Assembly (NCBI GenBank): GCA_038214335.1
Contig: JBBQRY010000001.1
Location: 1 to 30,694 of the forward strand
Direction of reading: 5' to 3'
Length of the DNA: 30,694 nucleotides
DNA from: Chthoniobacterales bacterium
GTDB taxonomy: Bacteria; Verrucomicrobiota; Verrucomicrobiia; Chthoniobacterales; Terrimicrobiaceae
The notes under the pieces were generated by a model. The model was not told the DNA's origin, searched no databases, and worked only from the letters and a program-made list of their open reading frames with translations. The first letter of the stretch is position 1. Each line of letters begins with the position of its first letter. This document shows, in pieces, positions 4,366-26,847 of this stretch. A program made the translations under genes and the position numbers.

Positions 4366-4461
4366 CTAGGAAACCGTGGAGGCATGCCGGGTCCGCCACC
4401 TGATGAGCCCCAGCACCATCAACGAACTGGCCAGCAATCCCCATGTGGACGGCTCGGGGAC
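4366..4461 (-). other. PEP-CTERM protein-sorting signal (exosortase substrate)
   Basis: VPEPS, then a hydrophobic helix, then basic RWRTRH at the extreme C-terminus. Confidence 0.92.
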
Positions 4462-7400
4462 GGCTGAGTAATTGAGGAGGAGATCATTGCCTCCGACACT
4501 CATGCTGAACGTGCCGGAATACGGATTACTGAATCCTGCCGTGCCGTTGTTTGCTGCCACATGAATGGCAAAGTTTCCTGCAGAAAACCCGGTAATCCCG
4601 CCGGTTGTGGCTACGAGCGTCCAAGAATAGCTGTTGGCGTCGTCGAAGTTGAGCGCGTCGCCGTTGCTGTCCGGTCCGACCGCCGAGAGGCTCCAGAGGT
4701 TGATGGAGAATCCACCGGTTGTCAGGCTGGCCAGGTCAAGGCTGCCGGTGAGGGAAATTGTGTCGTAACCTGTGCCAGCGGCTGCCGTGGCATCATTCAA
4801 CTGCCAATTGAACCCTCCCCCACCCTGCCACACCTGCGAGCCCGTGGAAAGCGTCCCGGGACTGTTTCCGGGAGAGAGCGTGCCGGCAACGGTCACCAGT
4901 CCATCCGCCGTGCCCGAACCAGCAAGCGTTCCTCCGGCGCTGACCATCACGCTATTTCCGGACGCCAGAGAGCCGTCGAGGACAAGGGTTCCCGAAGAGA
5001 TCGTGGTTGTTCCCACGAACGTGTTGGCGCCAGTCAGCGTCAGCGTGCCAGCGCCTGTCTTGACGAGTGCTCCGGTCGTGGTGCCCTCTGCTGAGATCAC
5101 GCCGCTGACGGTGGTGGCATGGTCGCCGGTGAAGGTGAGCGTGCGGGTGGTGGCCGTGCCAAAGCTCACCGGACCGGAAATCACGAGGTTTGCAGAGGCG
5201 GCATCGACCGAGGCATCGCCTGAGAGTGCCAGCCCGCTCGCAATTGTCTGTGTCAGTGCCGATTCGTTACGGATTGTGCCATAGGTTGTGATCGTGTTGT
5301 TGCTGAGGATCAGGGCCTCAGAGCCCGATTGGAAGGTGATATCACCCGCGAGCCGGTCGGTCTGCGTGTCAACGCTTGCCGCATTGGAAGATGTGAACGA
5401 CACCGCCGAGCCACCTGCCGCAGTGGTTCCGACCGCCCAGTTGGAGTTATCTCCCCATTGCCCGTTGCCAGCTACGTTGTTCCAGACGGCGGCTGAGGAG
5501 GATGCCAGAAACATGAGGTTCTGCGCAGTGGGGTATGAGAACGTGCCAGAGAGACCGGAGATGTTGGATTTGAACGTGAGCTGGTCAGCCGGAACGCCAC
5601 CGCCAATACCGCCGCCTGAGGAGGTTACCAGCGTGTAGTTTCCCGAGATGGAGAATCCCTTATCATTAAAATAAAAGGAGATGCCAGTGCCCAAGCTAGG
5701 CGCATTGGCCGTTATGATCCGGTCCGATGCGGTGGCTGCGCCGAGGTCCATCAGCAGTGTGGCGTTGCCGCTGGTGATCAGATTGCTCACGTTCACCGTC
5801 TCAATATTGTTCGCATTGCCCGGGCTGTAGGTGGGGGTTGCGCTGCCGCCGGTCAGGGGGCCGAGGTTGACCAGTGTGGCGGCCATGCTTCCCGAGGCAA
5901 ACGTCCCGCTGGAGATATTAACTTGCGCGACATCCGTGACGGCTCCGGCGGCGTAGATGGTGCCCGGCCCCTGGATGATGAGGTTGTTGCCCGCTCCGGC
6001 GAGAGCGCCTGTGAGAGAAAGCGTTGCACTATTGGACGCCAACGTGGTCTGTGAGGTGAGGGTGATCCCACCTCCGTATGTATTATTGCCGGAAACGTTT
6101 TGGAGTGCCCCGCCGGCATTATAGCCAACCCCGCCGACGCTGAGGTTTCCCGTCGCGATGTTGATGTCACCCTGGAACTGGAGTCCGCCGTTGGCGCTGA
6201 CCGTGGTATTCCCCGAGCCGAGAGCGGTATTGCTGGCGACCGTTAGAAACGTGCTGCTTCCGATGCTCGTATCTCCGCTGTAGGTGTTGTTGCCCGAGAG
6301 CTGGAGCCCCCCGGAGGCCGTTGTGGCAATGCCTCCGGTCCCGGTGATGTTACCCGATAAAACGATCGGCGCTGAACTGCTGGACGAGGTGAGAGTGTTG
6401 CTGCCGAGATCCACGGCTCCTGAGAGGATCAGTTGGCCGGTGGAGGAATTGATGAGAGAATTTCCAGCGAGAGTGACATCGCCAGCAATCGTCAGTGCGT
6501 TGCTCGCATTGTTGTTGATCGCACCCTGGTTCTTGGCGCTGACGACAACGCCTGTTCCGTCGAGGGAGATTGATGCGAAGGGCACGGCCTGGGCGGCTTT
6601 GCTCTGGATGCCGAGCTGAAGGGTGCCGCCCGAGGCGACAGTGAGCGCGGATGCGCTGCCCAGAGAGTTTGTGCCGAGAGCGTTGAGGATACCCCCTTGG
6701 ATGGTGGTCGCGCCGGTGTAGCTGCTGCCATTCCCGCTGAGATTGAGAGTTCCCAGTCCGGTTTTTACGAGACCACCCGAGCCGGTCAGATCGCCGGTGA
6801 GGGAAGTCGTCGCCAGGGCATTTGCACTCCCGATCGTCAGTGTGTGGGTTCCGACGCTCACGGCTTTCGACAGGGTCAGGTTCGTGGCTGCAGCACCCTG
6901 GATCGAGGCATCACCGGCAAGCGTGACGGTGCCGTCCCAGGTGGCGATGTTCGAGGCCAGGAGGAGTGCCCCGCTGCCCGCGACACCGGTGCCGCTCAGC
7001 GTCAGGGACTCTCCAGTCACCGTGAAGTTGCCGGTGGCATTGATCGCGAGCGAACCGTTGTTCATCACGGTCGTGCCGCTGGTTGTACCACCAAGGACGG
7101 AAACGCTGTCCATGAACAATGTTCCCTCATTGATCGTCGTTTCGCCGAGATAGGTATTGGCGACGGTTGTTGCCTGCTTAAGGGTTAGGTTTCCTGCGCC
7201 ATTTTTTGTGAGGCCGCCGGGGCCTACGATCACGCCGTTGATCGTGACATTATTTCCATTGGTATCGATGATGCCCGTCGAGTCCATAATCAGATACCGG
7301 TACTGGGAGGAGGCAATATCCCCGGAGGCCTGGAGGGTGCCGCCGCCAAAAATGAGGGAATTCGGGCCCTGATTGCCCGGGCCGACGGGACCTGCGCCAC

Positions 7401-10400
7401 TGCCGAGCGCATCGCCGGAATTTGCCGAGACAACGCCGTCATTGATGGTCAGCGTGCCGTTGAACGTATTGTTTCCGGTGAGCGCAAGCGTTCCGGCGCC
7501 GGTTTTTAGCAGGCTGCCGCCGAAGGCCGGACCGTCAGCGATCACGCCGGTGACGGATGTGTTCTCCGATCCCGAGAAGGTGAGGGTTCCGGGCAGAGCG
7601 CCATTGTTGCTGAGAGCGATGCCGCCGCCGACGGCGAGGCTTCCGGTATTGGCAGAGAGCGTGCGGTCGGAGTTCAGCGCGATGGCACTGTTGATCGTCT
7701 GGGTATTCGACGAGTTGTTTGCCAGGTTGCCACCGAGGACGATCGTGTTGCCGCTGATGGTGAACGCGGACGCTCCCGCAGCAAAATTGATGGCCCCGGT
7801 CGTCTGGTTCCCGCCGGTGGCAATATTGGTCTGGCTTGAGCCGGCAAACGTGAGGTCGGCTCCGGTTGCGGGGACGTTGCCGCCCTGCCAGTTGCCGGCA
7901 GTGGTCCAGTTTCCATCGCCCCCCGAACCATTCCAGGTGCCGGTGACACCGGCCTGCGCGGTGAAGGTCAGGTTTCCGCCCGAAACGCTGAATGTTCCCG
8001 TGAGCCCGGCAATGTCAATCGAGGCAAACGTGAAAGGCGGGCTGGAAGGATTGAGCGGGGCATTCCACTGCACTCCGGAAATCAACGTAAAGCTGCCCGG
8101 GCCAGCAGTGAAGCCAGCCCCTTTGAAGAGGAACGTCGTGGAGTTCCCCAGATCGACGATGCTGCCGACCTGAATTTTGTCTGAAGTATTCGCCGCGCCG
8201 AGGTCCATCAGAAACGAACCGGTGGAAGTGCCGCTCGACGCGATGAGCTGGGAAACAGAAATCGTATCGATGGTTCCGGAACCGCCGGGGCTGAGCGCGC
8301 CGCCATTGATCGAGACCGTGGCATTCATACTCGCCGATTCCAAAACGCCCCCGTTGACGGCAACCGTGCCGGTATTGGTGTTGTTCCCGAGAAGCGCCAG
8401 CGTGCCAGAACCGACTTTGGTGAGGGTCAAATCCCCCGAGACCGGGCCTGAAACGCTCATCTCTTTCGCTGCGGCGTTGTTGCCGATGTCGAAGGTCGCG
8501 CTCGTGGTGAGCGCGAGACCGCTGCTGATGGTTGCTGCGGAATTTCCAGTTCCGGTAAAGAGAATGGTGCTGCCACTTGCGATGGAGAGCGTGCCGTCGC
8601 CGGTAATGCTGCCGCCGCTCATCGTCAGGTTTCCGGAGGAGGCATTGAAGGTCTGCAGGTCGAGCTGTCCGTCGGTGCCGATCGTGATGCTGGTTCCGGG
8701 AATCTGGTTATCGGCGAGAAGGCGAACAACCGCGCTGTTGGCTAAACCGGTGTTGTCACCGATCACAAGGTTTCCGCCGTAGGCGGCACCGGATGTCTTG
8801 CCGAGAGCGAGAACACCGTCGTTGACCGTCGTCAGCCCAGTGTAGGTATTGGCGGAATTTCCGCTGAACGTCATCGTCCCGGTGCCGGCTTTTGTGAACG
8901 AGCTGACGGCGATGGATTCACCGATCGCTCCGGAAAAACCGACATCCACGGAATTTGTGAGGGTGAAATCCTTGAACATCACCGTGCCGCTGCCTTGGGG
9001 GATATTGCTGCCGGTGAGGGTTACCGGCCCGCTGAACATAAATCCATTTGTGCCGCTGAAGGTCGTATTTCCAGCGATCACAAGCGTATTGGCCAGCGTG
9101 CGATTACCGCCGGATGCCTGGAGGATGGCGTCGAGCGCACCCGCCTTCCCGAGAGCCAGGGTTCCTGTGCCTGCGACCTGGTCGCTTCCGAGGACGAGGG
9201 TGCCCGCCTGATGCTCAAGTCCGCCGGTGAACGTGTTGTTGCCGTTGAGCGTGAGGGTGCCGGACCCTTTTTTCATCAAGGAACCGCCAGCTCCGGTGTT
9301 GTTGCCGTCCGCGATGATCCCGCTGACGGTGGAGTTTTGGGTTCCGGAGAAGGTGAGGCTATTCGGAGTCGCTGAGTTTTTGAGCGCGATCGCTCCTCCG
9401 AACATGAGATCGCCAAAGGCAGCGGTCACCGTGCTGTTCGAGCCGAGGGTGAGGTTGGTGTTGATCGTCTGGGTTTTACTCGACGAGTTCACGATATCGC
9501 CGGTGAGGGTGATCGTATTGTTGGCAATCGTAAAAGTGCCGGCCGCATAGTTGAAGGCGATGCCCGCCACGCTCCGGTCGCTGCCGGTATCGACAGTGAC
9601 CGTCTGGGTGTGGTCTCCGACAAACTGGACCGAGGCGTTTCCGGCCGGGACCGCGTTTCCGATCCAGTTCCCTGCGGTTCCCCACTGCCCGTCGGTGGCA
9701 CTGCCATTCCAGATCGCGGTCGGGAGGGCTGCTGTGCCGTCCGGGTTGATTGTCAGCAATACCTGGGTGTTGGCTGTGAGGGGATCGGCCGTGTTATAGT
9801 AAAGCAGGTTGTTGCCGAGGCGGTCCTGCAGGGGAAATCCGTAGCCGGTGGTCAGCGGGTTCTTTCCGCCGGTGAGACTTGCCGCATAGCCATTGTAAAA
9901 GAGCGGGTTGGATTGAACGTCCGAAAAGTAGATTTGCTGACCGGCAGGCGTGTTGACAAAGAGGATCTGCTCACCTTCCGGAGTCCCGTTTGCGATCGTT
10001 GTCCCATTGACGTTGGAGGCCCCGCTTGCCCACCACTGGGCGCTCGCCAACTCACCGATGGCTGTGCCGTTGAAGAGGGTGGTGCTACCGACGTATCCGA
10101 AGCTCAGCCCCGCATAGAGGTCGCCGACAACCTGCCCCCACACGTCGTTGCTGATTCCCACCTGATCATGGCTATAGCCGGGAGAGGTGATCGTGTAATC
10201 GCCATTATTTCCGTAAATGCCGTCCTGCGAGTTGAGGGAGGCGTAGGGGATGTAGATCGTGGCCGTGGAGCCCACGCCCGATGCCGTCGAACTGCCCAGC
10301 CAAGCGACATCCGCATTGCCGGAGAGGGGACCTGCCGTAAGGGTGATTCCCCCGGTGGCCAGGTCACCCGAGAAAGTGCCCGTGAAGTCATAGGTCTGTC

Positions 10401-11415
10401 CTTGAGTTGAGATATTCCCCGTGGGTTGAGTTCCTGTGCCCACATACGTGCCAGCGAGGTGGACGGTCGCATTTTTTGTCGTCAGGTCGGTCAAATAAGC
10501 CGTGAAATCGTGGTAAACACCATCGGCGCTGAATTGCGGGCTGATGACTCTTGCAAATTCCGAATTTGGCAGAGTGGGCGATGCGCCGCCCGGAATGATC
10601 GCTGCGGGGTTGGCGTCGGGATTCGGAATCGTGGGGTTCGGGGGGGTCGCGGGAGCGACCGTGTTGGTCCCCGACTGGGCATAAGCGGCGTTGACGAGAA
10701 GCTGCGTGTTCGCCGAGATCTGGGTGTGATTCTGAACATTGGTGTTCACCGTTCCATTGGCGATATGCTGGGCAGTCATGGAGAGCGAAATGGCTGTGAA
10801 GTCGATGTAGGACAAGTCGGTATAAACTGCGGTGCCGGTGCCCTGCGGAACAATCGTCTGCTCAAAATACTGGTAGCGGGTGGAGTAGTTGGGGTCGGCA
10901 GGGGTCTGGGCGGCAGGCGTATAGCCGGGCTCCATGCCCTGAAGGCCGTAAGGTCCGAAATTTACGAAGATTCTGCCTCCGCTGAATTCGCTCACATTCA
11001 CCCGCGAGATTCCGTCTGCACCCGTGAGTTGATCGAGGGAGTAGGCCGTATTGGCCATCAATTGCTGGTTGTCGCCAAAAACATTGCTGTATGTCCCGGT
11101 GACCGTCGATGTCGCGTTAAGGAACTGAATAAAGATCTGGCTCGAACTTATCCCGGTATCATTCTTGAAGACGTAGGGAACCGCATCTGCGGCTTCCGCT
11201 GTTGCCGGTGAACCACCCCAGGCAGCCAAGATGAAAAGCGCACAGGCCATGCCGGAAAGCGGCTTCGCGATGGATCGAAACACGCCATCCGATGGCGAAA
11301 CGGTCGATGCGCCGGGTGAAATCCGTATGGATTTTGCTCCCGCAAAGAATTTCGCAGCAAAATGTTGATGCTTTGTTCCAAAAGTGAAATCGCATTTATC
11401 TCGGAGATTTTTCAT
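4366..11415 (-). CDS. 2349-aa secreted protein: GH64-like beta-1,3-glucanase domain + autotransporter-associated passenger (beta-strand) repeats + PEP-CTERM sorting signal
   Basis: Signal-like segment ending ATAEA. Many L.K.G.GTL.L.G.NTY/F.G.T.I..GTL repeats. C-terminal VPEPSTWGLLASSLMVLGLIRWRTR. No beta-barrel. Confidence 0.9.
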   Translation of the reverse strand: MKNLRDKCDFTFGTKHQHFAAKFFAGAKSIRISPGASTVSPSDGVFRSIAKPLSGMACALFILAAWGGSPATAEAADAVPYVFKNDTGISSSQIFIQFLNATSTVTGTYSNVFGDNQQLMANTAYSLDQLTGADGISRVNVSEFSGGRIFVNFGPYGLQGMEPGYTPAAQTPADPNYSTRYQYFEQTIVPQGTGTAVYTDLSYIDFTAISLSMTAQHIANGTVNTNVQNHTQISANTQLLVNAAYAQSGTNTVAPATPPNPTIPNPDANPAAIIPGGASPTLPNSEFARVISPQFSADGVYHDFTAYLTDLTTKNATVHLAGTYVGTGTQPTGNISTQGQTYDFTGTFSGDLATGGITLTAGPLSGNADVAWLGSSTASGVGSTATIYIPYASLNSQDGIYGNNGDYTITSPGYSHDQVGISNDVWGQVVGDLYAGLSFGYVGSTTLFNGTAIGELASAQWWASGASNVNGTTIANGTPEGEQILFVNTPAGQQIYFSDVQSNPLFYNGYAASLTGGKNPLTTGYGFPLQDRLGNNLLYYNTADPLTANTQVLLTINPDGTAALPTAIWNGSATDGQWGTAGNWIGNAVPAGNASVQFVGDHTQTVTVDTGSDRSVAGIAFNYAAGTFTIANNTITLTGDIVNSSSKTQTINTNLTLGSNSTVTAAFGDLMFGGAIALKNSATPNSLTFSGTQNSTVSGIIADGNNTGAGGSLMKKGSGTLTLNGNNTFTGGLEHQAGTLVLGSDQVAGTGTLALGKAGALDAILQASGGNRTLANTLVIAGNTTFSGTNGFMFSGPVTLTGSNIPQGSGTVMFKDFTLTNSVDVGFSGAIGESIAVSSFTKAGTGTMTFSGNSANTYTGLTTVNDGVLALGKTSGAAYGGNLVIGDNTGLANSAVVRLLADNQIPGTSITIGTDGQLDLQTFNASSGNLTMSGGSITGDGTLSIASGSTILFTGTGNSAATISSGLALTTSATFDIGNNAAAKEMSVSGPVSGDLTLTKVGSGTLALLGNNTNTGTVAVNGGVLESASMNATVSINGGALSPGGSGTIDTISVSQLIASSGTSTGSFLMDLGAANTSDKIQVGSIVDLGNSTTFLFKGAGFTAGPGSFTLISGVQWNAPLNPSSPPFTFASIDIAGLTGTFSVSGGNLTFTAQAGVTGTWNGSGGDGNWTTAGNWQGGNVPATGADLTFAGSSQTNIATGGNQTTGAINFAAGASAFTISGNTIVLGGNLANNSSNTQTINSAIALNSDRTLSANTGSLAVGGGIALSNNGALPGTLTFSGSENTSVTGVIADGPAFGGSLLKTGAGTLALTGNNTFNGTLTINDGVVSANSGDALGSGAGPVGPGNQGPNSLIFGGGTLQASGDIASSQYRYLIMDSTGIIDTNGNNVTINGVIVGPGGLTKNGAGNLTLKQATTVANTYLGETTINEGTLFMDSVSVLGGTTSGTTVMNNGSLAINATGNFTVTGESLTLSGTGVAGSGALLLASNIATWDGTVTLAGDASIQGAAATNLTLSKAVSVGTHTLTIGSANALATTSLTGDLTGSGGLVKTGLGTLNLSGNGSSYTGATTIQGGILNALGTNSLGSASALTVASGGTLQLGIQSKAAQAVPFASISLDGTGVVVSAKNQGAINNNASNALTIAGDVTLAGNSLINSSTGQLILSGAVDLGSNTLTSSSSSAPIVLSGNITGTGGIATTASGGLQLSGNNTYSGDTSIGSSTFLTVASNTALGSGNTTVSANGGLQFQGDINIATGNLSVGGVGYNAGGALQNVSGNNTYGGGITLTSQTTLASNSATLSLTGALAGAGNNLIIQGPGTIYAAGAVTDVAQVNISSGTFASGSMAATLVNLGPLTGGSATPTYSPGNANNIETVNVSNLITSGNATLLMDLGAATASDRIITANAPSLGTGISFYFNDKGFSISGNYTLVTSSGGGIGGGVPADQLTFKSNISGLSGTFSYPTAQNLMFLASSSAAVWNNVAGNGQWGDNSNWAVGTTAAGGSAVSFTSSNAASVDTQTDRLAGDITFQSGSEALILSNNTITTYGTIRNESALTQTIASGLALSGDASVDAASANLVISGPVSFGTATTRTLTFTGDHATTVSGVISAEGTTTGALVKTGAGTLTLTGANTFVGTTTISSGTLVLDGSLASGNSVMVSAGGTLAGSGTADGLVTVAGTLSPGNSPGTLSTGSQVWQGGGGFNWQLNDATAAAGTGYDTISLTGSLDLASLTTGGFSINLWSLSAVGPDSNGDALNFDDANSYSWTLVATTGGITGFSAGNFAIHVAANNGTAGFSNPYSGTFSMSVGGNDLLLNYSAVPEPSTWGLLASSLMVLGLIRWRTRHASTVS
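9740..11184 (-). other. GH64-like (laminaripentaose-producing beta-1,3-glucanase) domain
   Basis: Motifs in GH64 order: FSGGRIFVNFG; PAAQTPADPNY..YQYFEQT (Glu185); YTDLSYIDF (Asp205); RVISP; NDVWGQVVGDLYAG; YNGYA...YGFPLQD; LLTINPD. Confidence 0.72.
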
Positions 11416-14294: not shown

Positions 14295-17200
14295 ATGAAC
14301 GAGCGCACCGCCAACCCGATGCAGGCCGCGGTGTTTCTCCGCGACCACCACTCTCCCGCGAAGCACCACACCCAGGTCTCGATCAGCTTTGGCGAGCGCA
14401 CCGACCCTGCCGTGCTCCGTCAAGCATGGGAGGCGGTCTGTGATACCCATGTCATCCTCCGATCCACATTTTCCCGCTCGACCATCGGAGATGTCACAGT
14501 CTCCGAAGCCCCGGAGACCAAAACCACATGGGGGCAGGTCGATTGGACGGCCATCGATTCGGAAGTCCTGTCCGAGAAATGGGAGGAATTCCAAAATGCC
14601 GACCTGACCCTCCCGATGGATGGGTCATCGCGGATCACAGAAATCCTCCTGCCAGGCGGTGGCTCGCACTACCTGCTCACGCTCGCATCTTATCTGCTCG
14701 ATGAGGCTTCGATTGGACGCGTTTTGTTGGATTGGCTGGTCGCGCTCGAACGCGCCCCCGCGCAGCCCGCCGAGCAACCAGCCCCGCTCACGACCACTGC
14801 GGCATGGAGCGAAATTCTCAAATCTGCCGAAGCGCCGCTGGCTGTGCATGCCCGTCCGATTGAGGACCAGTCTGTCGCGACGGCCTCTCTCACACTCGGA
14901 CGCGAGCAATCCGCCGCGTTCCTCGACGCCTGCAAGGAGAAATCCCTCGACCCGCGCGCCGTCGTTCACAGCCTCTGGGCACTCATGCTCCGCCGCCTTG
15001 GAGCCACCGGAAATGTGACGCTCGGACAATTCAATGCCCGCCGGAGTTCGGACGCTATCGGATATTTCGAGAACTGGCTGCCAGTCTGTCATGAATGGGC
15101 CTCAAAGGATTGGATGCGCGATCTTCAGCGTGCGTATGGAGCGATTTCCGAAAACGCATGGATTTCGACATCCTCCGCCGTCACCGCTGCTCCCAAGCAA
15201 CTGGTGGGCGATCCGCTCTGCGTTGCGTTCTCATGGAGGGGTCCCGAAGCCCGCGAAGTCATCCAAAGCACGTTCCCGCGATGGATCAATTTCGATGCCC
15301 GCATCCGCCTCCCGCGTCCGGATTACCAATTGCTCGAGGTGCGCGCCGCCTCCCAGATTTCCCTCACCCTGCACGGCCTGCCGGGGAACGATGCCTTTGC
15401 CAACGATTTGCTCAAGCGGATCACGAGTCTCATGGAGGCACTCGATTCGATGGACAACAAACCGGCAGCCCAGGTTCCACTTCTGCTGCCGGACGAGATC
15501 CGCACGCTGAAAGAATGGTCGCGCGGTCCTGAAGGCGTGGAGCGTCCTGCCAATACGCTGGCCGCATTCCGCAAAGTCCTGGAAAAATCTCCAGACGCCA
15601 TTGCGGTGCGTGATGGGGATTACGAACTCACGTATGCCGAGCTCGACTCGCTTTCGGATCGCCTCGCGGCGCACTTTGCGCAGGCATCACTCGTCGGCGG
15701 ATGGCATGTTGCCCTCTTCCTTTCGCCTTCCTCGTGGATCGCGATTGCCCTGCTCGCCGCATGGAAAGCCGGGGATATCTGCCTGGCCCTTGATCCCGGA
15801 GCACCCCCGGAATGGATCGAGTCCATGCTCACCTCGCAGGATGTGGGGGTTGTCCTCTGCGATGCCGCCAGCGCCCCGCTTCTCGATGCCTCCTCGCGCC
15901 GGCGCATTGTTCTCGACCAAGAATGGGACGGGCTCGAAACCGCCGACCTGCCCAAAGCCGATCTCAAACCCGAGTCGCCTGCCGCGATCCTGCCCGGCCA
16001 CTCGGATGGTCCGCCGCCGCAGATCCGTGCTCTCACTCAGGAAATGCTCGTTGCCGCGGCGCTCGAGGGCGCACGTGTGCTGGATTTCGGTGCCGGCGAT
16101 TCGTTTCTTGCGCATTCCGCCCCCGGAGGCGGTGCCTTTTTTGACGAATGGCTCCTGCCGCTTCTTGCGGGCGGCACCGTTCAGATCGCCGAAGACGATC
16201 TGCTGGATCCCGTATCCGGCAACACAACTCACCTTCGCCTCACCGCTCCAGAATGGAACAACCAAGCCGCCCGCTGGGCCCGCGCTGGAGAGCAGATTGC
16301 GTCCGCTCCACGCGTTGTCGCTGTCGAATCCGGCTCCAACTCGACAAGTGCCCTCGAAGCATGGGACCACGGCACCGATAGCCAATCCCGCATCATCACG
16401 TTTTTCAGTCCCGCAGGGGTTTGCGGTTTGGGACTCGCCGCTCCCGCCTCGCCCGAGGGGGCATTTCTCATGATCGGACGTCCCACACCCGAGGTCGAAG
16501 CCTTCATCTGCGATGGCGACTCTCAGAATGTGCCGCCCGGATTCACCGGCGAGCTTTGGATCAAATTTCCCGGCTGGAAAAAATCCACCGAACTCCGCGG
16601 ACGCCGCGGCATTCGCACCGGACTCCGTGCATGGAGGAACCGGCAGGGCCTGATCCAGGTCGAAGGTCCGCTGAACCGTTTCACCGATCCCTCCCCCGCT
16701 GCCACCCGCCTGCGCACACTTCCCGAAGTCGTGGATTGTCTGCTCGGGGAACAGGCATGGACGTTGGAAAGCGGACAAGCTGATGGCAAATGGGCCGTGA
16801 CAGAATGGCCGCTGGATCGCGGTGGTTGGATCGACGTGCCCTCGCTTCCGCGTCCCGAACTCGCCGTGCCCACGTCACAACCTGCCCGTGCCGTAGCCGC
16901 TGTGACCGCCGTGCCAGCACCTAAGCCCACCACCCCATGGTCACCAGTCTCCGTGCTCCAGCAGAATGGGTCCACTCCCCCGCTGGTTCTTGTCCCCACA
17001 ACATCCGGCGTGCCCGAAGTCTATCAGGATTTCGTATCCGACCTCGGTGACTCGCGCCGCATCCTAGGTCTCACCGCCCGCGGAGCCCACGACCCCGATG
17101 CCTCCCACACCACCATCGAAAATGCCGCTGCCGCATGGATTGAGGCCCTCACCGAAGAAGACCCTACCATCGCATTTGACCTTTGCGGATTCGGATTCGG

Positions 17201-17609
17201 AGGCATCGCCGCCCTCGAAATGGCCCGCCAATTGGGCGCTGCCAAACGTCGCGTGCCAGGCCTCATCCTCATTGGGTCGCTTCCACCGGAGTCTGAACAA
17301 CCTGCCGGCTGGCTGGCCTCCATGAAAAAATCCGTCTTTAAGCGTCTTGCCGCCGAAGAGCGCGTCGAGCCATGGCCCGCTGCTGGCGAACCCGCCCGCT
17401 CGCACGAAGCCGCATGGAAACGCTACCGACTCACTCCCTGCAACATTCCTGCCCGGATTATTGTCCCGTCAGATTTTCCGCCCGACGCCGCTGCGAACTG
17501 GCTCAGCCTCCTCCCGTCTGCCCGCATCGAACCCGTCAAATGCACCTGGTCCGAAATGCTCTCCTTCCCCGCCGTCAAACGCCTCGCCTCCATCCTCGCT
17601 TCGTCGTAA
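14295..17609 (+). CDS. NRPS-like C-A-TE protein lacking a carrier domain and with degenerate catalytic motifs
   Basis: C-fold (LRQAWEAVCDTHVILRSTF; IGYFENWLPV), A-fold (LTYAEL; WKAGDICLALDP; TGELWI), TE-fold (TIENAAAAWIEAL; LCGFGFGGIAALEMARQL). Intact 1104-aa ORF starting 3 bp after the ilvD stop. Confidence 0.85.
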   Translation: MNERTANPMQAAVFLRDHHSPAKHHTQVSISFGERTDPAVLRQAWEAVCDTHVILRSTFSRSTIGDVTVSEAPETKTTWGQVDWTAIDSEVLSEKWEEFQNADLTLPMDGSSRITEILLPGGGSHYLLTLASYLLDEASIGRVLLDWLVALERAPAQPAEQPAPLTTTAAWSEILKSAEAPLAVHARPIEDQSVATASLTLGREQSAAFLDACKEKSLDPRAVVHSLWALMLRRLGATGNVTLGQFNARRSSDAIGYFENWLPVCHEWASKDWMRDLQRAYGAISENAWISTSSAVTAAPKQLVGDPLCVAFSWRGPEAREVIQSTFPRWINFDARIRLPRPDYQLLEVRAASQISLTLHGLPGNDAFANDLLKRITSLMEALDSMDNKPAAQVPLLLPDEIRTLKEWSRGPEGVERPANTLAAFRKVLEKSPDAIAVRDGDYELTYAELDSLSDRLAAHFAQASLVGGWHVALFLSPSSWIAIALLAAWKAGDICLALDPGAPPEWIESMLTSQDVGVVLCDAASAPLLDASSRRRIVLDQEWDGLETADLPKADLKPESPAAILPGHSDGPPPQIRALTQEMLVAAALEGARVLDFGAGDSFLAHSAPGGGAFFDEWLLPLLAGGTVQIAEDDLLDPVSGNTTHLRLTAPEWNNQAARWARAGEQIASAPRVVAVESGSNSTSALEAWDHGTDSQSRIITFFSPAGVCGLGLAAPASPEGAFLMIGRPTPEVEAFICDGDSQNVPPGFTGELWIKFPGWKKSTELRGRRGIRTGLRAWRNRQGLIQVEGPLNRFTDPSPAATRLRTLPEVVDCLLGEQAWTLESGQADGKWAVTEWPLDRGGWIDVPSLPRPELAVPTSQPARAVAAVTAVPAPKPTTPWSPVSVLQQNGSTPPLVLVPTTSGVPEVYQDFVSDLGDSRRILGLTARGAHDPDASHTTIENAAAAWIEALTEEDPTIAFDLCGFGFGGIAALEMARQLGAAKRRVPGLILIGSLPPESEQPAGWLASMKKSVFKRLAAEERVEPWPAAGEPARSHEAAWKRYRLTPCNIPARIIVPSDFPPDAAANWLSLLPSARIEPVKCTWSEMLSFPAVKRLASILASS

Positions 17610-19997: not shown

Positions 19998-20300
19998 CTA
20001 CTGCCAGTGGGCCGGGATCCAGACGCGTTGGCCGTTCGAGGTGCCCCATGTGCCATCAACCCAGACGGATTGGGGGCTGGGAGGGAGGCCGCGTTGTGGC
20101 GTGGCAGAGGAAGGACCAGCTTCAAGGAAGTCTGAGTCGTTGCTTCGTCCAGCGGTGGCTGGATGCGGCCCGCGATCGAGCCATTCAAAGAGGGCGTAGC
20201 CGATGGGATCAGGTGGACGCAGGCGGCCTTCCGCATTGCGGCAACCGATGAGGGAACTGCACAGGAGAAGCCCACTGCCGATCAGAAAGGTGTGACGCAT
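19998..20300 (-). CDS. Small lipoprotein with C-terminal YXWGXW-like motif
   Basis: Lipobox LIGC after a hydrophobic stretch; tail SVWVDGTWGTSNGQRVWIPAHWQ. Confidence 0.72.
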   Translation of the reverse strand: MRHTFLIGSGLLLCSSLIGCRNAEGRLRPPDPIGYALFEWLDRGPHPATAGRSNDSDFLEAGPSSATPQRGLPPSPQSVWVDGTWGTSNGQRVWIPAHWQ

Positions 20301-20327
20301 GGAGATCAGTATCTCCCGGTCTGGGAA

Positions 20328-21569
20328 TTATTTCCACTGAAGATTTGCGAGGCGCAGGGCAACTTCCTCGACATTGGCGCGACTGTTGAACGCCGAAATG
20401 CGGAAATACCCTTCGCCTGCGGGCCCGAATCCGCTGCCTGGAGTTACGACCACATTTGCCTGCGAAAGCACTCTGTCAAAAATCTCCCAACTCGTGAGCC
20501 CATGCGGTCCGCGCACCCAGATATACGGCGCATTCTGACCCCCGAACGTCTCGAGTCCGCATCCTTTTGCCGCTTCAACAAGGATCCGGGCATTTCCCAT
20601 ATAATGCTCGATGAGCGCCGCGACCTCGCGCTGGCCTTCCCCGGAATAAAGCGCCGCCGCTGCCCGCTGGGTGACATAGCCGACCCCATTGAACTTTGTG
20701 CTAAAGCGCCGGTTCCAAAGCGGGTGGAGCGGATGCTTTGCGCCCGCAGATGTCGTGCAGTGGAGGGCTTTCGGAACCACGGTAAAGGCGCAACGCACAC
20801 CAGTGAATCCCCCGTTTTTCGAGAAGCTGCGAAACTCGATCGCGCACGTGTTAGCACCGGGGATTTCGTAAATCGAATGCGGGATCCCGGGATCTTGAAT
20901 GTAGGCTTCGTAGGCGGCATCAAAGAGGATGACCGCCTCATGGGCGCGGGCGTAGTCCACCCACGCCGCAAGTTGCTCGCGGGTGGCCGTGGCACCGGTC
21001 GGATTATTCGGATAGCAGAGGTAAATCAGATCCACCTTTTCGCTCGGCACCGCTGGGACGAATCCGTTTCCCGCCGTGCATGGCAGGTAAACCAGTCCGC
21101 CGTAGAGCCCGCAAGCATCGCCTTCGGCGGTGTGGCCGGCCATGACATTCGTATCGACATAGACCGGGTAAACCGGATCCATCACGGCGATCCGGTTGTC
21201 GTGCCCGAAAATATCCAAAATATTCCCGCAGTCGCACTTCGAGCCGTCGGAGACAAAAATCTCATCGTTGGCCACTTCGATGCCACGCTCGCGGTAATCG
21301 TTTGCGGCAATCGCCTCGCGGAGAAATTCATAGCCCTGCTCCGGACCGTAACCTTTGAAGGTTTCGCGCCCGCCCATTTCATCGACGGCTGCATGCATGG
21401 CCTCGCGCACAGCCTCGGGCAGCGGTTCGGTCACGTCTCCAATTCCACAGCGAATCAACCGCGCGGCAGCATCCGGACTAGCATCCGTGAAAGCCTTAAC
21501 CCTACGGTTGATTTCCGGGAACAAATACCCGGCCTTGAGTTTGAGATAATTGGAATTGAGACGCGCCAT
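20328..21569 (-). CDS. dapL: LL-diaminopimelate aminotransferase
   Basis: [48 protein letters not shown]-lysine [30 protein letters not shown]. Confidence 0.96.
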
Positions 21570-21628
21570 AGGAAAGCCGGTCACCGTGCCATACGCGCTC
21601 AGACCTGAAAAGCAAAATTATAAGTTAT

Positions 21629-22388: not shown

Positions 22389-23087
22389 TCAACCTAAATT
22401 CAGGTTCCGCTTGATGAGGATATCGCGTGCGAAGGGATTTCCTTCGTCCTCCATTTCGCGGAGATAGAGAACGGCGAGGGCTCGGACGGATTCCGCAGGA
22501 TGGTCGAGGGCGGCTTCTGCAACGCGCGGGGTGAGGAAGCGCTCCAGCATGTTGGTGGCTTGGGCCGCATCGGCGGCGGGGAGAATTCCGAGATATGCGC
22601 GTTCCGCCTTGGCTTCTAGGAAGGCGATATCTTGGAGATCCTTGTCACGTCCGGTGTCCTGCTTGGTCACCAGGATGTCAATGACGTCCGGCAGCCGTGT
22701 GCCATCGGCAAGCGGGGTGGCGCGCGCCCAGACGGCATCAAACTCGTCCATATCCAATTCGTTCGGAGCACGAAAGATGTCGAGGGGTTGGTTTGCTCCC
22801 ATGATTCGGATCACTCCATCCTGCGCGATCACCTGGGAAAGGTCGTCTGGGGAAATCGGGGTCCAACTTCCGATGGCGAGAGGCTGAAGGGCCGGATACG
22901 TTCGGCAAAGCGCGAGCACGACAGAGGCCCAAGCGCAGGGATCCAAGCTAGGATCCAGCCAGATATCGGCGTCGAACGTGGGTCTCGAGTGGCCATGAGA
23001 AATCACCGCCAGCCCGCCCAGCATCAAGACGCGATGGCTTTCAGCCAAAGCACAGGTGATTATTGCTGTGGAAGCGGGATTTTCCAT
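22389..23087 (-). CDS. Pol-beta-superfamily nucleotidyltransferase with helical C-terminal extension
   Basis: LMLGGLAVISHGHSRPTFDADIWLD (GG...DxD), PLDIFR, KQDTGRDKDLQDIAFLE. ATG 23087. Confidence 0.82.
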   Translation of the reverse strand: MENPASTAIITCALAESHRVLMLGGLAVISHGHSRPTFDADIWLDPSLDPCAWASVVLALCRTYPALQPLAIGSWTPISPDDLSQVIAQDGVIRIMGANQPLDIFRAPNELDMDEFDAVWARATPLADGTRLPDVIDILVTKQDTGRDKDLQDIAFLEAKAERAYLGILPAADAAQATNMLERFLTPRVAEAALDHPAESVRALAVLYLREMEDEGNPFARDILIKRNLNLG

Positions 23088-23311
23088 TGGCGAGCGGTCT
23101 CCTTGATCCGATCCGAAATCCAGATGGCGTCGGCGACGGATTGCACGCCTCCGGGCAGCCATGGTTCGGAGTTGTCGGGGATGGGTTTGAGGCCTTGGGC
23201 GACGCGCGAATTCCCCTCGGGTTTGCCCTGCCGTCGCCGGATGTAAGCGCGTGATTGCTGCATGGAATACAACCACTTCTGCCGTTCCACATCCGGGCGG
23301 TATTGTTTCAT
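23060..23311 (-). CDS. Small hypothetical protein, putative partner of the nucleotidyltransferase
   Basis: 83-aa ORF overlapping the downstream nucleotidyltransferase start by 28 nt. Confidence 0.58.
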   Translation of the reverse strand: MKQYRPDVERQKWLYSMQQSRAYIRRRQGKPEGNSRVAQGLKPIPDNSEPWLPGGVQSVADAIWISDRIKETARQWKIPLPQQ

Positions 23312-23525
23312 GTGCCGAGCCTAACGCGCGCCGCCCGATATTTCCAGCCACATTCTGCTCAGTGCTAAGGAGGTTTCAGAAAGGGATAGTCAATCGATGG
23401 CTTACAAGGGCCTGATCGACCTCCGGCAGCAGGTGCGCTGAGCGAAGTCGCTTGTGAAGATTCAGCTCCAGCGCCGACACGATCTGATTCCTGTCATTGC
23501 AAATACTGTCAGTGGCATAAAACGA

Positions 23526-24387: not shown

Positions 24388-26484
24388 CTACCGGCGTCCT
24401 CCACCGCCCCGGAATCCGCCGCCACCCCCAAACGAGCGCTGCTGACCGACATTTCGCGAGAACCTCTGCGAGTCGAGGTCCGAGCGCATCGAGTCATTGA
24501 ACGCATTGCGATCCGGCTGAGCCCAGCCATCGCCTTTTTGTTGCTGCCAGCCGCCATCGGAGGCGGCCCGATACGCTTGGCCGTCCTTTCCGGCAAAGAC
24601 ATCGTTGTTGCCCAGCCGTGAGGCATCGTTCTGGAGCGTTTGCCGATCTACGGTCTGACGGTTTTCAGCGCGTGCGGGATCATTGGCCTGCGGGCGATCG
24701 TTTTTCCAGTTTTGGTAGTTCGGGTTCGACCGGATATTGTTGGCCGCATTGTTGACATCCGTGCGGGTGATGTGCGTGTTCTTTACGACGTTGTTGGACC
24801 AGTTGTTATAGACGTTGCGGGTGTTGATGTTCACGTTGTTCCAGTTCTTTTCCCATCCGCCATGCCATGGTCCCCACCATGGCGAACATCCCCAGGCGTG
24901 GTCGGCGACAAGGCCGAAGGCAAACCCGGTGGACAGCCCGCAGGCAAATCCCGCACCGAATCCATACGTCACGGGGGGGCCAATCCAAACATCGCCTCCA
25001 ATAAATGGCGGATACCAATATCCGGTTCCGAACACCACGACGCCCTCCGGAGCAAGGCATGGCCCAAAGTAGCCCGGGGTGTAACCCGTATAGACAACTT
25101 CCGGCGTTGAACCATACACAGAGACATTTGTCACATAGTAGATCGGGCAGCTCGGAGGAATCGCGTAAATCTCCGGAGGCACGGAATCCGCAACCGCCCA
25201 TGGCCCAGTGGGCGCGGCGGACTGAAACCAGACGCCCTTCACGATCGCATAGTAGGAATCCTCTGCCACCTTGATGACGGGCGTGGAGGTATTGATCGCA
25301 TAGCCAAGAGCGGTGCCGGCAATCGGCTGAAACTCGGGAGTTCCTACGAAATCCACGGTGGTTGAAGCCGTGCGTGAGATCGTTGCCGTCTGCGGAATCG
25401 TGGATGAGATGGCTGCCTCGTTGGCCTGCGGAGTTCCCGCCACGGACGCCAGCACGGTCCCCGCCGGATGGCTCTCCGGGATCATTGCAAAATCCGCCGG
25501 AAGCGCATTGGACGCCACAAACTGCCATGGTCCCGCGAGCGAAGGTCCTGTGAACCAGCGCCCGGAAAGCACGACATACCATGCCTGAGTTGGCACATAG
25601 ACGAAGATCGAGCCGGTGGAGTTCGTCACCTGCAAAAGCTGGGTGGGATCAATCGGAGCGAGCTGTGCAGGCCCCTCGGTCGTGACCAACTCCGCCGCTG
25701 CGGTGCTCACAAAAACCGTCGGCAGCGGTCCCGGTTCCGAACCCTTCGGCGGATCATAAAGCTGTGCGGTATCCGACACCCCAGCCAGCACGGTAGCCAG
25801 CGATGCGGGCGGAGTCTGCGCCGCCGTCCATGGCCCGTTCAACGCCGAAGCCTGCACCCAGCCGCCATTGATGCGCAGGAAATACAGTCCGCTGGTTGGG
25901 TCCATCAGGATGAGTGCTTGGGTATTGATCACGCGCAGCAAGGTGACACCATTCACCGCACGCAAGGCGGGTTCGCCATTCACCAGCACGAGCACGGCGG
26001 GGCCGTCGCTGGTGAAAATCGTGGGAACAGGATTCTGCACCGCGACGGTAGGTTGGCCTTCGGCGGTTGTGACGGCAAGGTTGGCTCGAATGGCCGGGAG
26101 CGAAAGGTTCTGCGCCCACGTGGAAGCTTGGGCGGTGACGAGGCCCGCATAATTGGTGGCCTGATCCGGAGCGGATGGAAAATTGATCTGTGCCGGCGTG
26201 AGATTCGACAACGACACAACCTGCTGCTCATTATCGACATCCGTCGTGCCCATGAGAACCATGGTCCCGAATTGCGGAGCCGCCGCCCCCTGTGGCGTCA
26301 CCGACACCGCCAGCCGAGCTGTCAACTGGTTGCCCGTCCAATCAGTCACCTGTGGCTGGTAAACCGAAAACGACGCCCCATTCGCAGTGAACGTCCTCGG
26401 CCACCCCGCGCCGGGGTCCGCAAACCCTTCCCCAGCAAAAAAACAAATACCCGCAACCGCAAACAACAGGCAGCACGTTTTCAT
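24388..26484 (-). CDS. Secreted 698-aa protein with three internal Y....G.W......GPW repeats and Asn-rich / Gly-Arg-rich tail
   Basis: Signal peptide MKTCCLLFAVAGICFFAGEGFA, then WPRTF...YQPQVTDW. Ends GGGGGFRGGGGRR. Confidence 0.82.
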   Translation of the reverse strand: MKTCCLLFAVAGICFFAGEGFADPGAGWPRTFTANGASFSVYQPQVTDWTGNQLTARLAVSVTPQGAAAPQFGTMVLMGTTDVDNEQQVVSLSNLTPAQINFPSAPDQATNYAGLVTAQASTWAQNLSLPAIRANLAVTTAEGQPTVAVQNPVPTIFTSDGPAVLVLVNGEPALRAVNGVTLLRVINTQALILMDPTSGLYFLRINGGWVQASALNGPWTAAQTPPASLATVLAGVSDTAQLYDPPKGSEPGPLPTVFVSTAAAELVTTEGPAQLAPIDPTQLLQVTNSTGSIFVYVPTQAWYVVLSGRWFTGPSLAGPWQFVASNALPADFAMIPESHPAGTVLASVAGTPQANEAAISSTIPQTATISRTASTTVDFVGTPEFQPIAGTALGYAINTSTPVIKVAEDSYYAIVKGVWFQSAAPTGPWAVADSVPPEIYAIPPSCPIYYVTNVSVYGSTPEVVYTGYTPGYFGPCLAPEGVVVFGTGYWYPPFIGGDVWIGPPVTYGFGAGFACGLSTGFAFGLVADHAWGCSPWWGPWHGGWEKNWNNVNINTRNVYNNWSNNVVKNTHITRTDVNNAANNIRSNPNYQNWKNDRPQANDPARAENRQTVDRQTLQNDASRLGNNDVFAGKDGQAYRAASDGGWQQQKGDGWAQPDRNAFNDSMRSDLDSQRFSRNVGQQRSFGGGGGFRGGGGRR

Positions 26485-26590
26485 AGAATTCAAACTAGCA
26501 TCAACATGCCGGTTAGCGAGGGAATAACGCGTTGGAACCGGCCTGCCGATCGTGGGCAAAACCTTGCATGGGGATGCCTGTTTCCTTCAT

Positions 26591-26638
26591 TCCGGTGGAG
26601 CCATGTTTTCTGGCTAAAACTGCGCCACCTCCACCGGA
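26591..26638 (-). terminator. Stem-loop directly 3' of tRNA-Ser(GGA), possible terminator or processing signal
   Basis: Perfect 10-bp inverted repeat TCCGGTGGAG (26591-26600) / CTCCACCGGA (26629-26638), with inner GTTTT/AAAAC pairing. No strong U-tract. Confidence 0.4.
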
Positions 26639-26646
26639 GGAAAACC

Positions 26647-26731
26647 CGGATGGGGAGGGATTCGAACCCCCGGTACCTTTCGGCACACACGCTTTCCAGG
26701 CGTGCGCATTCGACCACTCTGCCACCCATCC
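26647..26731 (-). tRNA. tRNA-Ser(GGA)
   Basis: Minus strand GGATGGGTGGCAGAGTGG...CACGC-CTGGAAA-GCGTG, long variable arm, GGTTCGAATCC T-loop, CCCATCCG. CCA is not encoded. Confidence 0.97.
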
Positions 26732-26847
26732 TTGATTGAACGAACAACCATCATTAGCGGAGCCTTCGGGGTTTGACAACACTGCTCGCAAGAAATTCCG
26801 GCATCCGATCGGCATAGACGGCGAGGCGAAAGCCGCAGAACGGACTC

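Follow-up and report, generated by a model that had tools for sequence, protein, structure and literature searches.

What does a bacterium do with a protein of more than two thousand residues of which routine annotation records only the repeats? The question is raised by a gene at positions 4366..11415, minus strand, of a 30,694-nt stretch of DNA from an uncultured sediment Verrucomicrobiota bacterium (Chthoniobacterales bacterium, Terrimicrobiaceae; assembly GCA_038214335.1, contig JBBQRY010000001.1, positions 1-30,694, forward strand). The whole stretch is called the window below, and all positions are window coordinates; the genome sample is a 2.29-Mb assembly in 346 contigs and is 83% complete. 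The gene is one intact open reading frame of 2,349 codons plus stop, which encodes a leader of ~75 residues, a head of ~485 residues, a stretch of ~1,750 residues in which Gly, Thr, Ser and Asn abound, and a short tail. We consider it probable that the product is a glycoside hydrolase that cleaves beta-1,3-glucan and is tethered to the cell envelope on an exosortase-sorted rod. Every part of the protein is of a known kind, and the combined design is real, conserved in ~35 relatives and overlooked by routine annotation. The parts are as follows, with amino acid (aa) numbers and the basis of each in brackets.

4366..11415, minus strand: whole gene, comprising leader, head resembling glycoside hydrolase family 64 (GH64), beta-helix stalk of three modules and PEP-CTERM tail (open reading frame list, translation)
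11191..11415, minus strand: N-terminal leader, aa 1-75, with hydrophobic core ACALFILAAWGG and an AEA/ADA cleavage-type site just before the head (sequence, orthologues)
9736..11190, minus strand: GH64-like head, aa 76-560 (Pfam, family profile, AlphaFold2, Foldseek, VIA-align, hhalign)
10861..10863, minus strand: codon of Glu185, candidate general acid, equivalent to Glu154 of the laminaripentaose-producing glucanase LPHase (alignments to 3gd0 and to canonical GH64)
10801..10803, minus strand: codon of Asp205, candidate general base, equivalent to LPHase Asp170 (alignments to 3gd0 and to canonical GH64)
7942..9717, minus strand: stalk module A, aa 567-1158, with a W..G..W..NW cap, a predicted right-handed beta-helix of ~18 rungs with PATR repeats and a terminal beta-sandwich (PATR, AlphaFold2, Foldseek)
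5491..7941, minus strand: stalk module B, aa 1159-1975, homologous to A and longer (internal BLASTP, PATR)
4471..5490, minus strand: stalk module C, aa 1976-2315, the shortest copy, with an SPG... beta-rich domain before the tail (internal BLASTP, PATR)
4369..4470, minus strand: PEP-CTERM tail, aa 2316-2349, with VPEPS, the hydrophobic helix TWGLLASSLMVLGLI and the basic cluster RWRTRH (TIGR02595, PF07589)

The head is the part that gives the protein a possible function. A preliminary description, made from the letters alone, had picked out a series of short motifs, likened them to motifs of LPHase and named one Glu and one Asp as the catalytic pair. A script found all the motifs where they had been placed, in the one intact frame: FSGGRIFVNFG (aa 144-154), PAAQTPADPN (aa 167-176), YFEQT (aa 183-187), SYIDF (aa 202-206), RVISP (aa 289-293), NDVWGQVVGDLYAG (aa 423-436), YNGYA (aa 507-511), YGFPLQD (aa 525-531) and LTINPD (aa 554-559; 9739-9756), and the Glu and Asp codons are those of residues 185 and 205. 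The head lies above the Pfam cut-off for PF16483 (Glyco_hydro_64), with 37.5 versus 27 bits and an expectation value (E) of 2.2e-9, in a match confined to the N-terminal third of the profile. No NCBIfam family was found for it at E <= 0.1, and a search of the Protein Data Bank (PDB) with the single head sequence gave only a marginal match (E 0.019), so that a family profile was required.

Relatives were collected by an exhaustive HMMER search at E <= 0.001 and fell into 92 clusters (50% identity). The heads of 62 were aligned, and this alignment, here called A1, served for the profile, the conservation counts, the structural model and the tree. The A1 profile matched LPHase (PDB 3gd0) with E 7.1e-15 and other GH64 structures with E 1e-10 to 1e-14. 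The alignment to 3gd0 displays the LPHase motifs PAVQNPTDPN, WSEYT, QVDMF, RALSP and AYGFAFDD of the preliminary description, together with SGRIYFSYG, given there as FSGRIYFSYG. In this alignment SGRIY and PAxQxPxDPN correspond between the two, the Glu of WSEYT falls on that of YFEQT, the Asp of QVDMF on that of SYIDF, and RALSP on RVISP. A comparison of A1 by hhalign with A3, a set of canonical GH64 domains from other Verrucomicrobiota genomes (full-length matches of 160-196 bits), gave 98.6% probability and E 1.2e-15, with an alignment that ends after ~240 residues. The resemblance of the head to GH64 is far beyond chance. The parallel between YGFPLQD and AYGFAFDD lies in the C-terminal half; it does not reach significance in the sequence comparison and rests on the fold alignment described below. 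PF16483 matches 49 of the 62 clade members, with a best E of only 2.9e-16, and the name of a divergent GH64-like clade suits the head better than that of typical GH64.

The AlphaFold2 model of the head, built on A1, has a predicted local distance difference test (pLDDT) value of 91.7 and a predicted template modelling (pTM) score of 0.90; its poorly defined loop is a Pro-rich stretch at aa ~250-269. The six best Foldseek matches in the PDB are all GH64 (five entries), and the seventh and the remaining top ranks are thaumatins; the neighbours of the model in AlphaFold DB are GH64-domain proteins. VIA-align placed the model on 3gd0 with Z 23.8 (332/362 residues aligned, model residues 6-491) and on the four other GH64 entries with Z 20.6-22.3, against 11-14 for thaumatin-like proteins. 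The likeness to LPHase foreseen in the preliminary description thus extends to a predicted fold of GH64/thaumatin type. Because the model aligns over 332/362 residues of 3gd0, with the GH64 entries first, both GH64 domains, the thaumatin-like beta-sandwich and the alpha/beta domain, are present in the head as modelled. A thaumatin-like or GH152 assignment of the head was rejected, since GH64 structures match much better (Z 21-24 versus 11-14).

The Glu of WSEYT and the Asp of QVDMF are residues 154 and 170 when counted along the 3gd0 chain, and Glu154/Asp170 is described as the acid/base pair of an inverting mechanism in LPHase (PMC4758615, citing Wu et al. 2009). E185 and D205 of the head align with this pair in 3gd0 and, in the hhalign comparison, with the Glu and Asp that never vary among the canonical domains. 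Within the clade both are nearly invariant, E185 being Glu in 61/62 heads and D205 Asp in 59/62, and the SGRIY motif retains its Arg (Arg148) in 59/62. The polar residues R289, Q340, Y342, N423, D432, Y525, D531 and R532 are also nearly invariant. The sugar contacts of LPHase named in PMC4758615 are Thr156, Asn158, Trp163 and Thr167, two of which have kept equivalents, Thr187 (Thr in 51/62) and Ser202 (Ser or Thr in 62/62). From sequence and model together, the head is probably an active hydrolase of this divergent clade and most probably has remained a beta-1,3-glucanase.

The head is followed by a stalk of three tandem modules. Internal BLASTP aligned aa 569-1032 with 1161-1584 at 35% identity and E 9e-44 (modules A and B), and module C with modules A and B at E 5e-25 and 5e-22; the W..G..W..NW cap motif opens modules A and B, and at least seven PATR repeats are detected in the stalk. 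Module A, modelled with AlphaFold2 on 23 orthologues, is all-beta (pLDDT 91.6), and its DSSP strand list was read as ~18 rungs, of ~25 residues apiece, with a small beta-sandwich after them. Its top Foldseek matches are the passengers of EspC, SepA, IgA1 protease, pertactin, Hbp and EspP, that is, of type Va autotransporters. Modules B and C, being homologous, are expected to be beta-helical like A, in line with the beta-helical stalk of ~1750 residues that the preliminary description had proposed. If the modules are colinear, and if the rung count of module A is extrapolated to all three, the rod is estimated at ~54 rungs and roughly 25-35 nm. The 83%-complete genome has seven PATR matches, and every one falls in this gene, whose product is apparently the sole beta-helix repeat protein of the genome as assembled.

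At its C-terminus the protein carries a tail in which the PEP residues are aa 2320-2322 (4450-4458). The last 100 residues score 19.5 bits with TIGR02595 (cut-off 16), the tail scores 22.3 versus 20.7 bits with PF07589 in a whole-genome search, and the tail is conserved among orthologues. The genome has a single exosortase-family gene, on contig C36 (PF09721, 84.3 bits), whose product passes the TIGR04178 family signature (45.6 versus 23 bits) and none of the named subtypes, and it has eight PEP-CTERM matches, seven besides this protein. A polyprenyl synthase gene adjoins the exosortase gene, and no exopolysaccharide gene was recognised among the few open reading frames checked beside it. The autotransporter barrel PF03797 has no match in the protein nor anywhere in the 83%-complete genome. 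It had been proposed that the protein is sorted by exosortase rather than by an autotransporter barrel, and these results agree with that proposal. Judged from its sequence, the protein belongs to the PEP-CTERM class on each criterion that could be tested, and it would be processed by the exosortase and exposed at the outer membrane. Membership of the type Va autotransporters was rejected because the C-terminal 12-stranded barrel (PF03797) is lacking.

The N-terminal leader ends in an A-x-A/AD(P/A)(I/V)P junction that is common to the orthologues, and a start of the type MKN...DFT is common to some of them; cleavage would be expected at AEA/ADA. The leader is unusually long, with ~55 residues ahead of the hydrophobic core, and some orthologues begin in the same way (MKN/H..., then DFT). 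It is reminiscent of the extended signal peptides of large type V proteins, and no match to the extended signal peptide region (ESPR) model was seen in a Pfam scan of the protein.

The design is not particular to this genome. Full-length orthologues, about 35 in number, come from Terrimicrobiaceae, 'Spartobacteria' and other Verrucomicrobiota metagenome bins, and their lengths stay within 2,281-2,410 aa though identity drops below 50%. Among 33 orthologues (P0002-P0034) a simple PEP-CTERM pattern recognises every tail but that of P0016, in which ~25 extra residues come after a hydrophobic stretch and a basic cluster. In the six nearest orthologues no part is as well conserved as the head, which has 80-88% identity versus 61-73% in the stalk modules. 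The opposite is observed in P0018, P0021, P0022, P0024, P0025 and P0030, where module A is 61-69% identical and the head 47-51%, and in P0018 and P0021 module C is also closer to the window protein (70-77%) than the head is. Such a pattern points to recombination between head and stalk or to their evolution as a mosaic. The distribution is patchy, the gene being found in 8/151 sampled genomes of the order, and any GH64 match in 14/401 of the phylum. A 2,142-aa open frame from a different family of the phylum (G443:C543:6554-7084) begins with a weak N-terminal GH64 match (28.7 bits), so that stalked GH64-like proteins may reach past the order of the window.

One relative differs in the way it ends. 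P0035, a 3,838-aa protein from a Methylacidiphilales bin, has the same head, a longer stalk and a complete autotransporter beta-domain (PF03797, 181.8 bits). In a maximum-likelihood tree of the 62 heads, 27 of them stalked, the stalked proteins form one group (support 99/91) inside which P0035 branches first, and stand-alone proteins of 400-600 aa form the neighbouring group. The tree was midpoint-rooted for drawing only, and therefore no direction of change is claimed. Among the 27 stalked members, 26 are without a barrel (25 of these with a recognisable PEP-CTERM tail) and P0035 alone has one. In the stand-alone group, P0038 (Terrimicrobiaceae; NCBI name 'beta-1,3-glucanase family protein') joins the head without a stalk to a PEP-type tail (VIPEPG, hydrophobic helix) that lies just under the Pfam cut-off, at 19.6 versus 20.7 bits, and the tails of short relatives are of PEP-CTERM, IPTL-CTERM-like or MYXO-CTERM type. 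It is tempting to suggest, as a possibility that we put forward tentatively and hold to be rather doubtful, that PEP-CTERM/exosortase sorting and the type Va barrel are interchangeable display routes for one family of enzyme-tipped beta-helices, and that the head clade is a new GH64 subfamily whose enlarged second domain gives new products or a new substrate. The swap between barrel and PEP-CTERM tail is the most valuable angle of the finding. If the two routes are interchangeable, exosortase sorting can bring a folded rod of 2,300 residues to the cell surface, and the natural pair of barrel and PEP-CTERM forms would make the outer-membrane step of PEP-CTERM sorting directly testable.

Another kind of ending was seen in the stand-alone proteins P0045, P0050, P0054, P0055, P0059, P0065 and P0070, which stop soon after the domain with ...LLLLDQ, LLLLGNN, LLLQ, LLLEN or LLLGE; one such relative clusters with a protein of Solidesulfovibrio alcoholivorans. 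These endings could be an unrecognised C-terminal sorting or secretion signal.

Taken together, the parts could work as follows. The long leader would direct Sec export and would probably be cut at AEA/ADA, leaving the two-domain GH64-fold enzyme as the mature N-terminus. This enzyme would cleave beta-1,3-glucan by inversion, with Glu185 as acid and Asp205 as base, the likely substrates being curdlan-type, fungal or algal wall glucan, laminarin or chrysolaminarin. It would sit at the far end of a rod of ~1,750 residues made of three tandem modules like the beta-helices of autotransporter passengers, each closed by a small beta-sandwich. The single exosortase of the genome would recognise the PEP-CTERM signal and would stand in for the type Va beta-barrel in sorting and anchoring. 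The glucanase would then be presented at a fixed distance from the surface, where insoluble or polymeric glucan could be attacked on contact and the products kept nearby. Three GH1 beta-glucosidase-type genes in the genome could be available for these products; since these and one single-domain GH3 gene are present, downstream use of gluco-oligosaccharides is possible. The tightly conserved length, in the only PATR protein found in a small genome, suggests that the reach of the enzyme from the cell matters.

Several observations weigh against a surface-tethered beta-1,3-glucanase. Only the first ~240 residues of the head contribute significance at the level of sequence, the PF16483 match spans only profile positions 33-159 of 370, and the second domain is recognisable by fold only and contains ~150 extra residues. 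Identity to the solved GH64 enzymes is 15-18%, and a characterised member of the head clade was not found in the literature. Of the LPHase sugar contacts, Asn158 is not kept (variable Val189), and an insertion of 4 residues falls at Trp163, where Tyr198 occupies a position that varies between Tyr, Asn, Trp and Phe. The gene is not flanked by genes for carbohydrate utilisation, here or at two orthologous loci, and neither a GH16 nor a two-domain GH3 gene was found in the 83%-complete genome. To our knowledge there is no established route for PEP-CTERM proteins across the outer membrane, and in Akkermansia such proteins were detected more in intracellular than in outer-membrane fractions, as reported in PMC4960237.

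Some of these points would suit a GH64-fold hydrolase with a different task, one that acts on another beta-glucan or on the cell's own exopolysaccharide, to remodel or release the matrix that is the supposed place of action of PEP-CTERM proteins, and not for foraging on foreign beta-1,3-glucan. The catalytic pair is kept, yet the enlarged C-terminal domain cannot be aligned by sequence, the head departs from LPHase at two of its four subsite residues, the clade stands apart from canonical GH64 even by its best Pfam E value, genes for glucan utilisation are missing around the head gene, and PEP-CTERM systems have been linked to exopolysaccharide production (PMC4960237). All solved structures that match the head are nevertheless beta-1,3-glucanases. 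Characterised enzymes of GH64 and of the thaumatin-like family GH152 are known to act on beta-1,3-glucan, which counts against another substrate, as do Thr187 and Ser202, which match two LPHase sugar contacts. As for the cell's own exopolysaccharide, the exosortase gene lies beside a polyprenyl synthase gene, with no exopolysaccharide gene in the few neighbouring frames checked, and we regard a different substrate or role as unlikely. A non-catalytic tip is a second possibility: the thaumatin fold is common to both kinds of protein (Z 11-14), the overall layout is that of beta-helical adhesins, and orthologues are named 'fibronectin-binding autotransporter adhesin', so the head might be a lectin or adhesin, like thaumatin-like proteins, with which the cell adheres to glucan of fungi, algae or the matrix. 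GH64 enzymes are, however, much closer in structure than thaumatins (Z 21-24 versus 11-14), and Glu185, Asp205, the SGRIY Arg and many polar groove-type residues are kept over deep divergence. Near-invariance of the Glu/Asp pair and of polar residues is the pattern expected of an enzyme rather than of a lectin, which makes the lectin very improbable.

The place of action raises a separate doubt, for the protein could stay in the periplasm or on the inner membrane by an uncleaved C-terminal helix, so that the enzyme would work inside the envelope and would not be held away from the cell. The gap in the known PEP-CTERM pathway at the outer membrane and the intracellular abundance of these proteins in Akkermansia (PMC4960237) are both compatible with this, and no barrel or other secretion partner is encoded beside the gene. 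On the other hand, no periplasmic beta-1,3-glucan substrate is evident, and P0035 carries the same head and stalk on an autotransporter barrel, an outer-membrane display device. The Gram-negative periplasm is about as wide as, or narrower than, ~25-35 nm, and the estimated rod would equal or exceed it. Retention inside the envelope appears quite unlikely, if slightly less so than a lectin, and we retain a beta-1,3-glucanase tethered at the cell envelope as the probable function.

Routine annotation conveys little of this. It had been predicted that only the repeats would be labelled, and the precomputed Pfam list indeed gives PATR alone for the window protein; orthologues are named 'autotransporter-associated beta strand repeat-containing protein', 'fibronectin-binding autotransporter adhesin' or 'hypothetical protein' in the databases, and GH64 is named in only 7/36 proteins of the relatives set. 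No description of such an architecture was found in the literature on GH64 with Verrucomicrobia or on PEP-CTERM with glucanase. Through our analysis one giant 'autotransporter-associated beta strand repeat' protein, of a kind that is normally left as a repeat protein or 'adhesin' in genomes of the Planctomycetes-Verrucomicrobia-Chlamydiae (PVC) group, acquires a concrete enzymatic function that can be tested. The analysis also defines a sequence-divergent GH64-like clade of 92 clusters at 50% identity, with stand-alone and anchored forms, which pipelines recognise only marginally.

The neighbours of the gene are of housekeeping type (fumarase, DAHP synthase, dihydroxy-acid dehydratase) with a gene resembling a nonribosomal peptide synthetase (NRPS), and they differ in two orthologous loci. 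Scans for promoters and terminators around the gene gave nothing beyond chance. Sequence words of the contig occur in sediment and microbial-mat metagenomes, and none of the RNA runs contains the contig sequence. The NRPS-like gene (14295-17609, plus strand) stands directly after the dihydroxy-acid dehydratase gene and encodes 1,104 aa with weak Condensation, AMP-binding and Thioesterase matches and no carrier-domain match. Three further open reading frames of 320-481 aa, at 20163-21608 (plus strand), 22389-23351 (minus strand) and 25468-26739 (plus strand), have no Pfam match at E <= 0.001.

The protein can be compared with three known systems. The GH64 endo-beta-1,3-glucanases considered were Streptomyces matensis LPHase (3GD0/3GD9), Paenibacillus barengoltzii PbBgl64A (5H9X/5H9Y), 7VTK and 5H4E. 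With these the head shares the predicted two-domain fold (Z 20.6-23.8), a homologous N-terminal domain, and the catalytic Glu/Asp with the SGRIY, DPN and RxxSP motifs in the same order. It differs from them in its low identity of 15-18%, in the ~150 extra residues, which include the Pro-rich loop at aa ~250-269, in a C-terminal domain that sequence profiles do not align and in two of the four LPHase subsite residues. GH64 enzymes are secreted free or joined to a carbohydrate-binding module, whereas this head continues into a stalk of 1,750 aa and a PEP-CTERM tail.

A typical PEP-CTERM substrate is a small protein of low complexity and unknown function, unlike the cargo here, a beta-helical protein of 2,300 aa with a recognisable enzyme. 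With the substrates of the PEP-CTERM/exosortase (EpsH) sorting system (Haft 2006, 2012, as summarised in PMC4960237) the protein has in common the PEP motif, the transmembrane helix and the basic cluster, together with an exosortase-family gene in the genome, although that exosortase fits no named subtype and has the TIGR04178 family signature only.

In overall build the protein resembles the type Va autotransporters with an enzyme head, namely the serine protease autotransporters of Enterobacteriaceae (SPATEs) EspC, Hbp, EspP and SepA and the IgA1 protease, which also carry an N-terminal globular enzyme on a right-handed beta-helix with PATR and are the best matches of the stalk model. The window protein differs from these in that its head has the predicted fold of a glycoside hydrolase and not of a serine protease, its stalk is built of three tandem modules, and a PEP-CTERM tail stands in place of the C-terminal barrel. 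Its relative P0035 does share the barrel with the type Va autotransporters.

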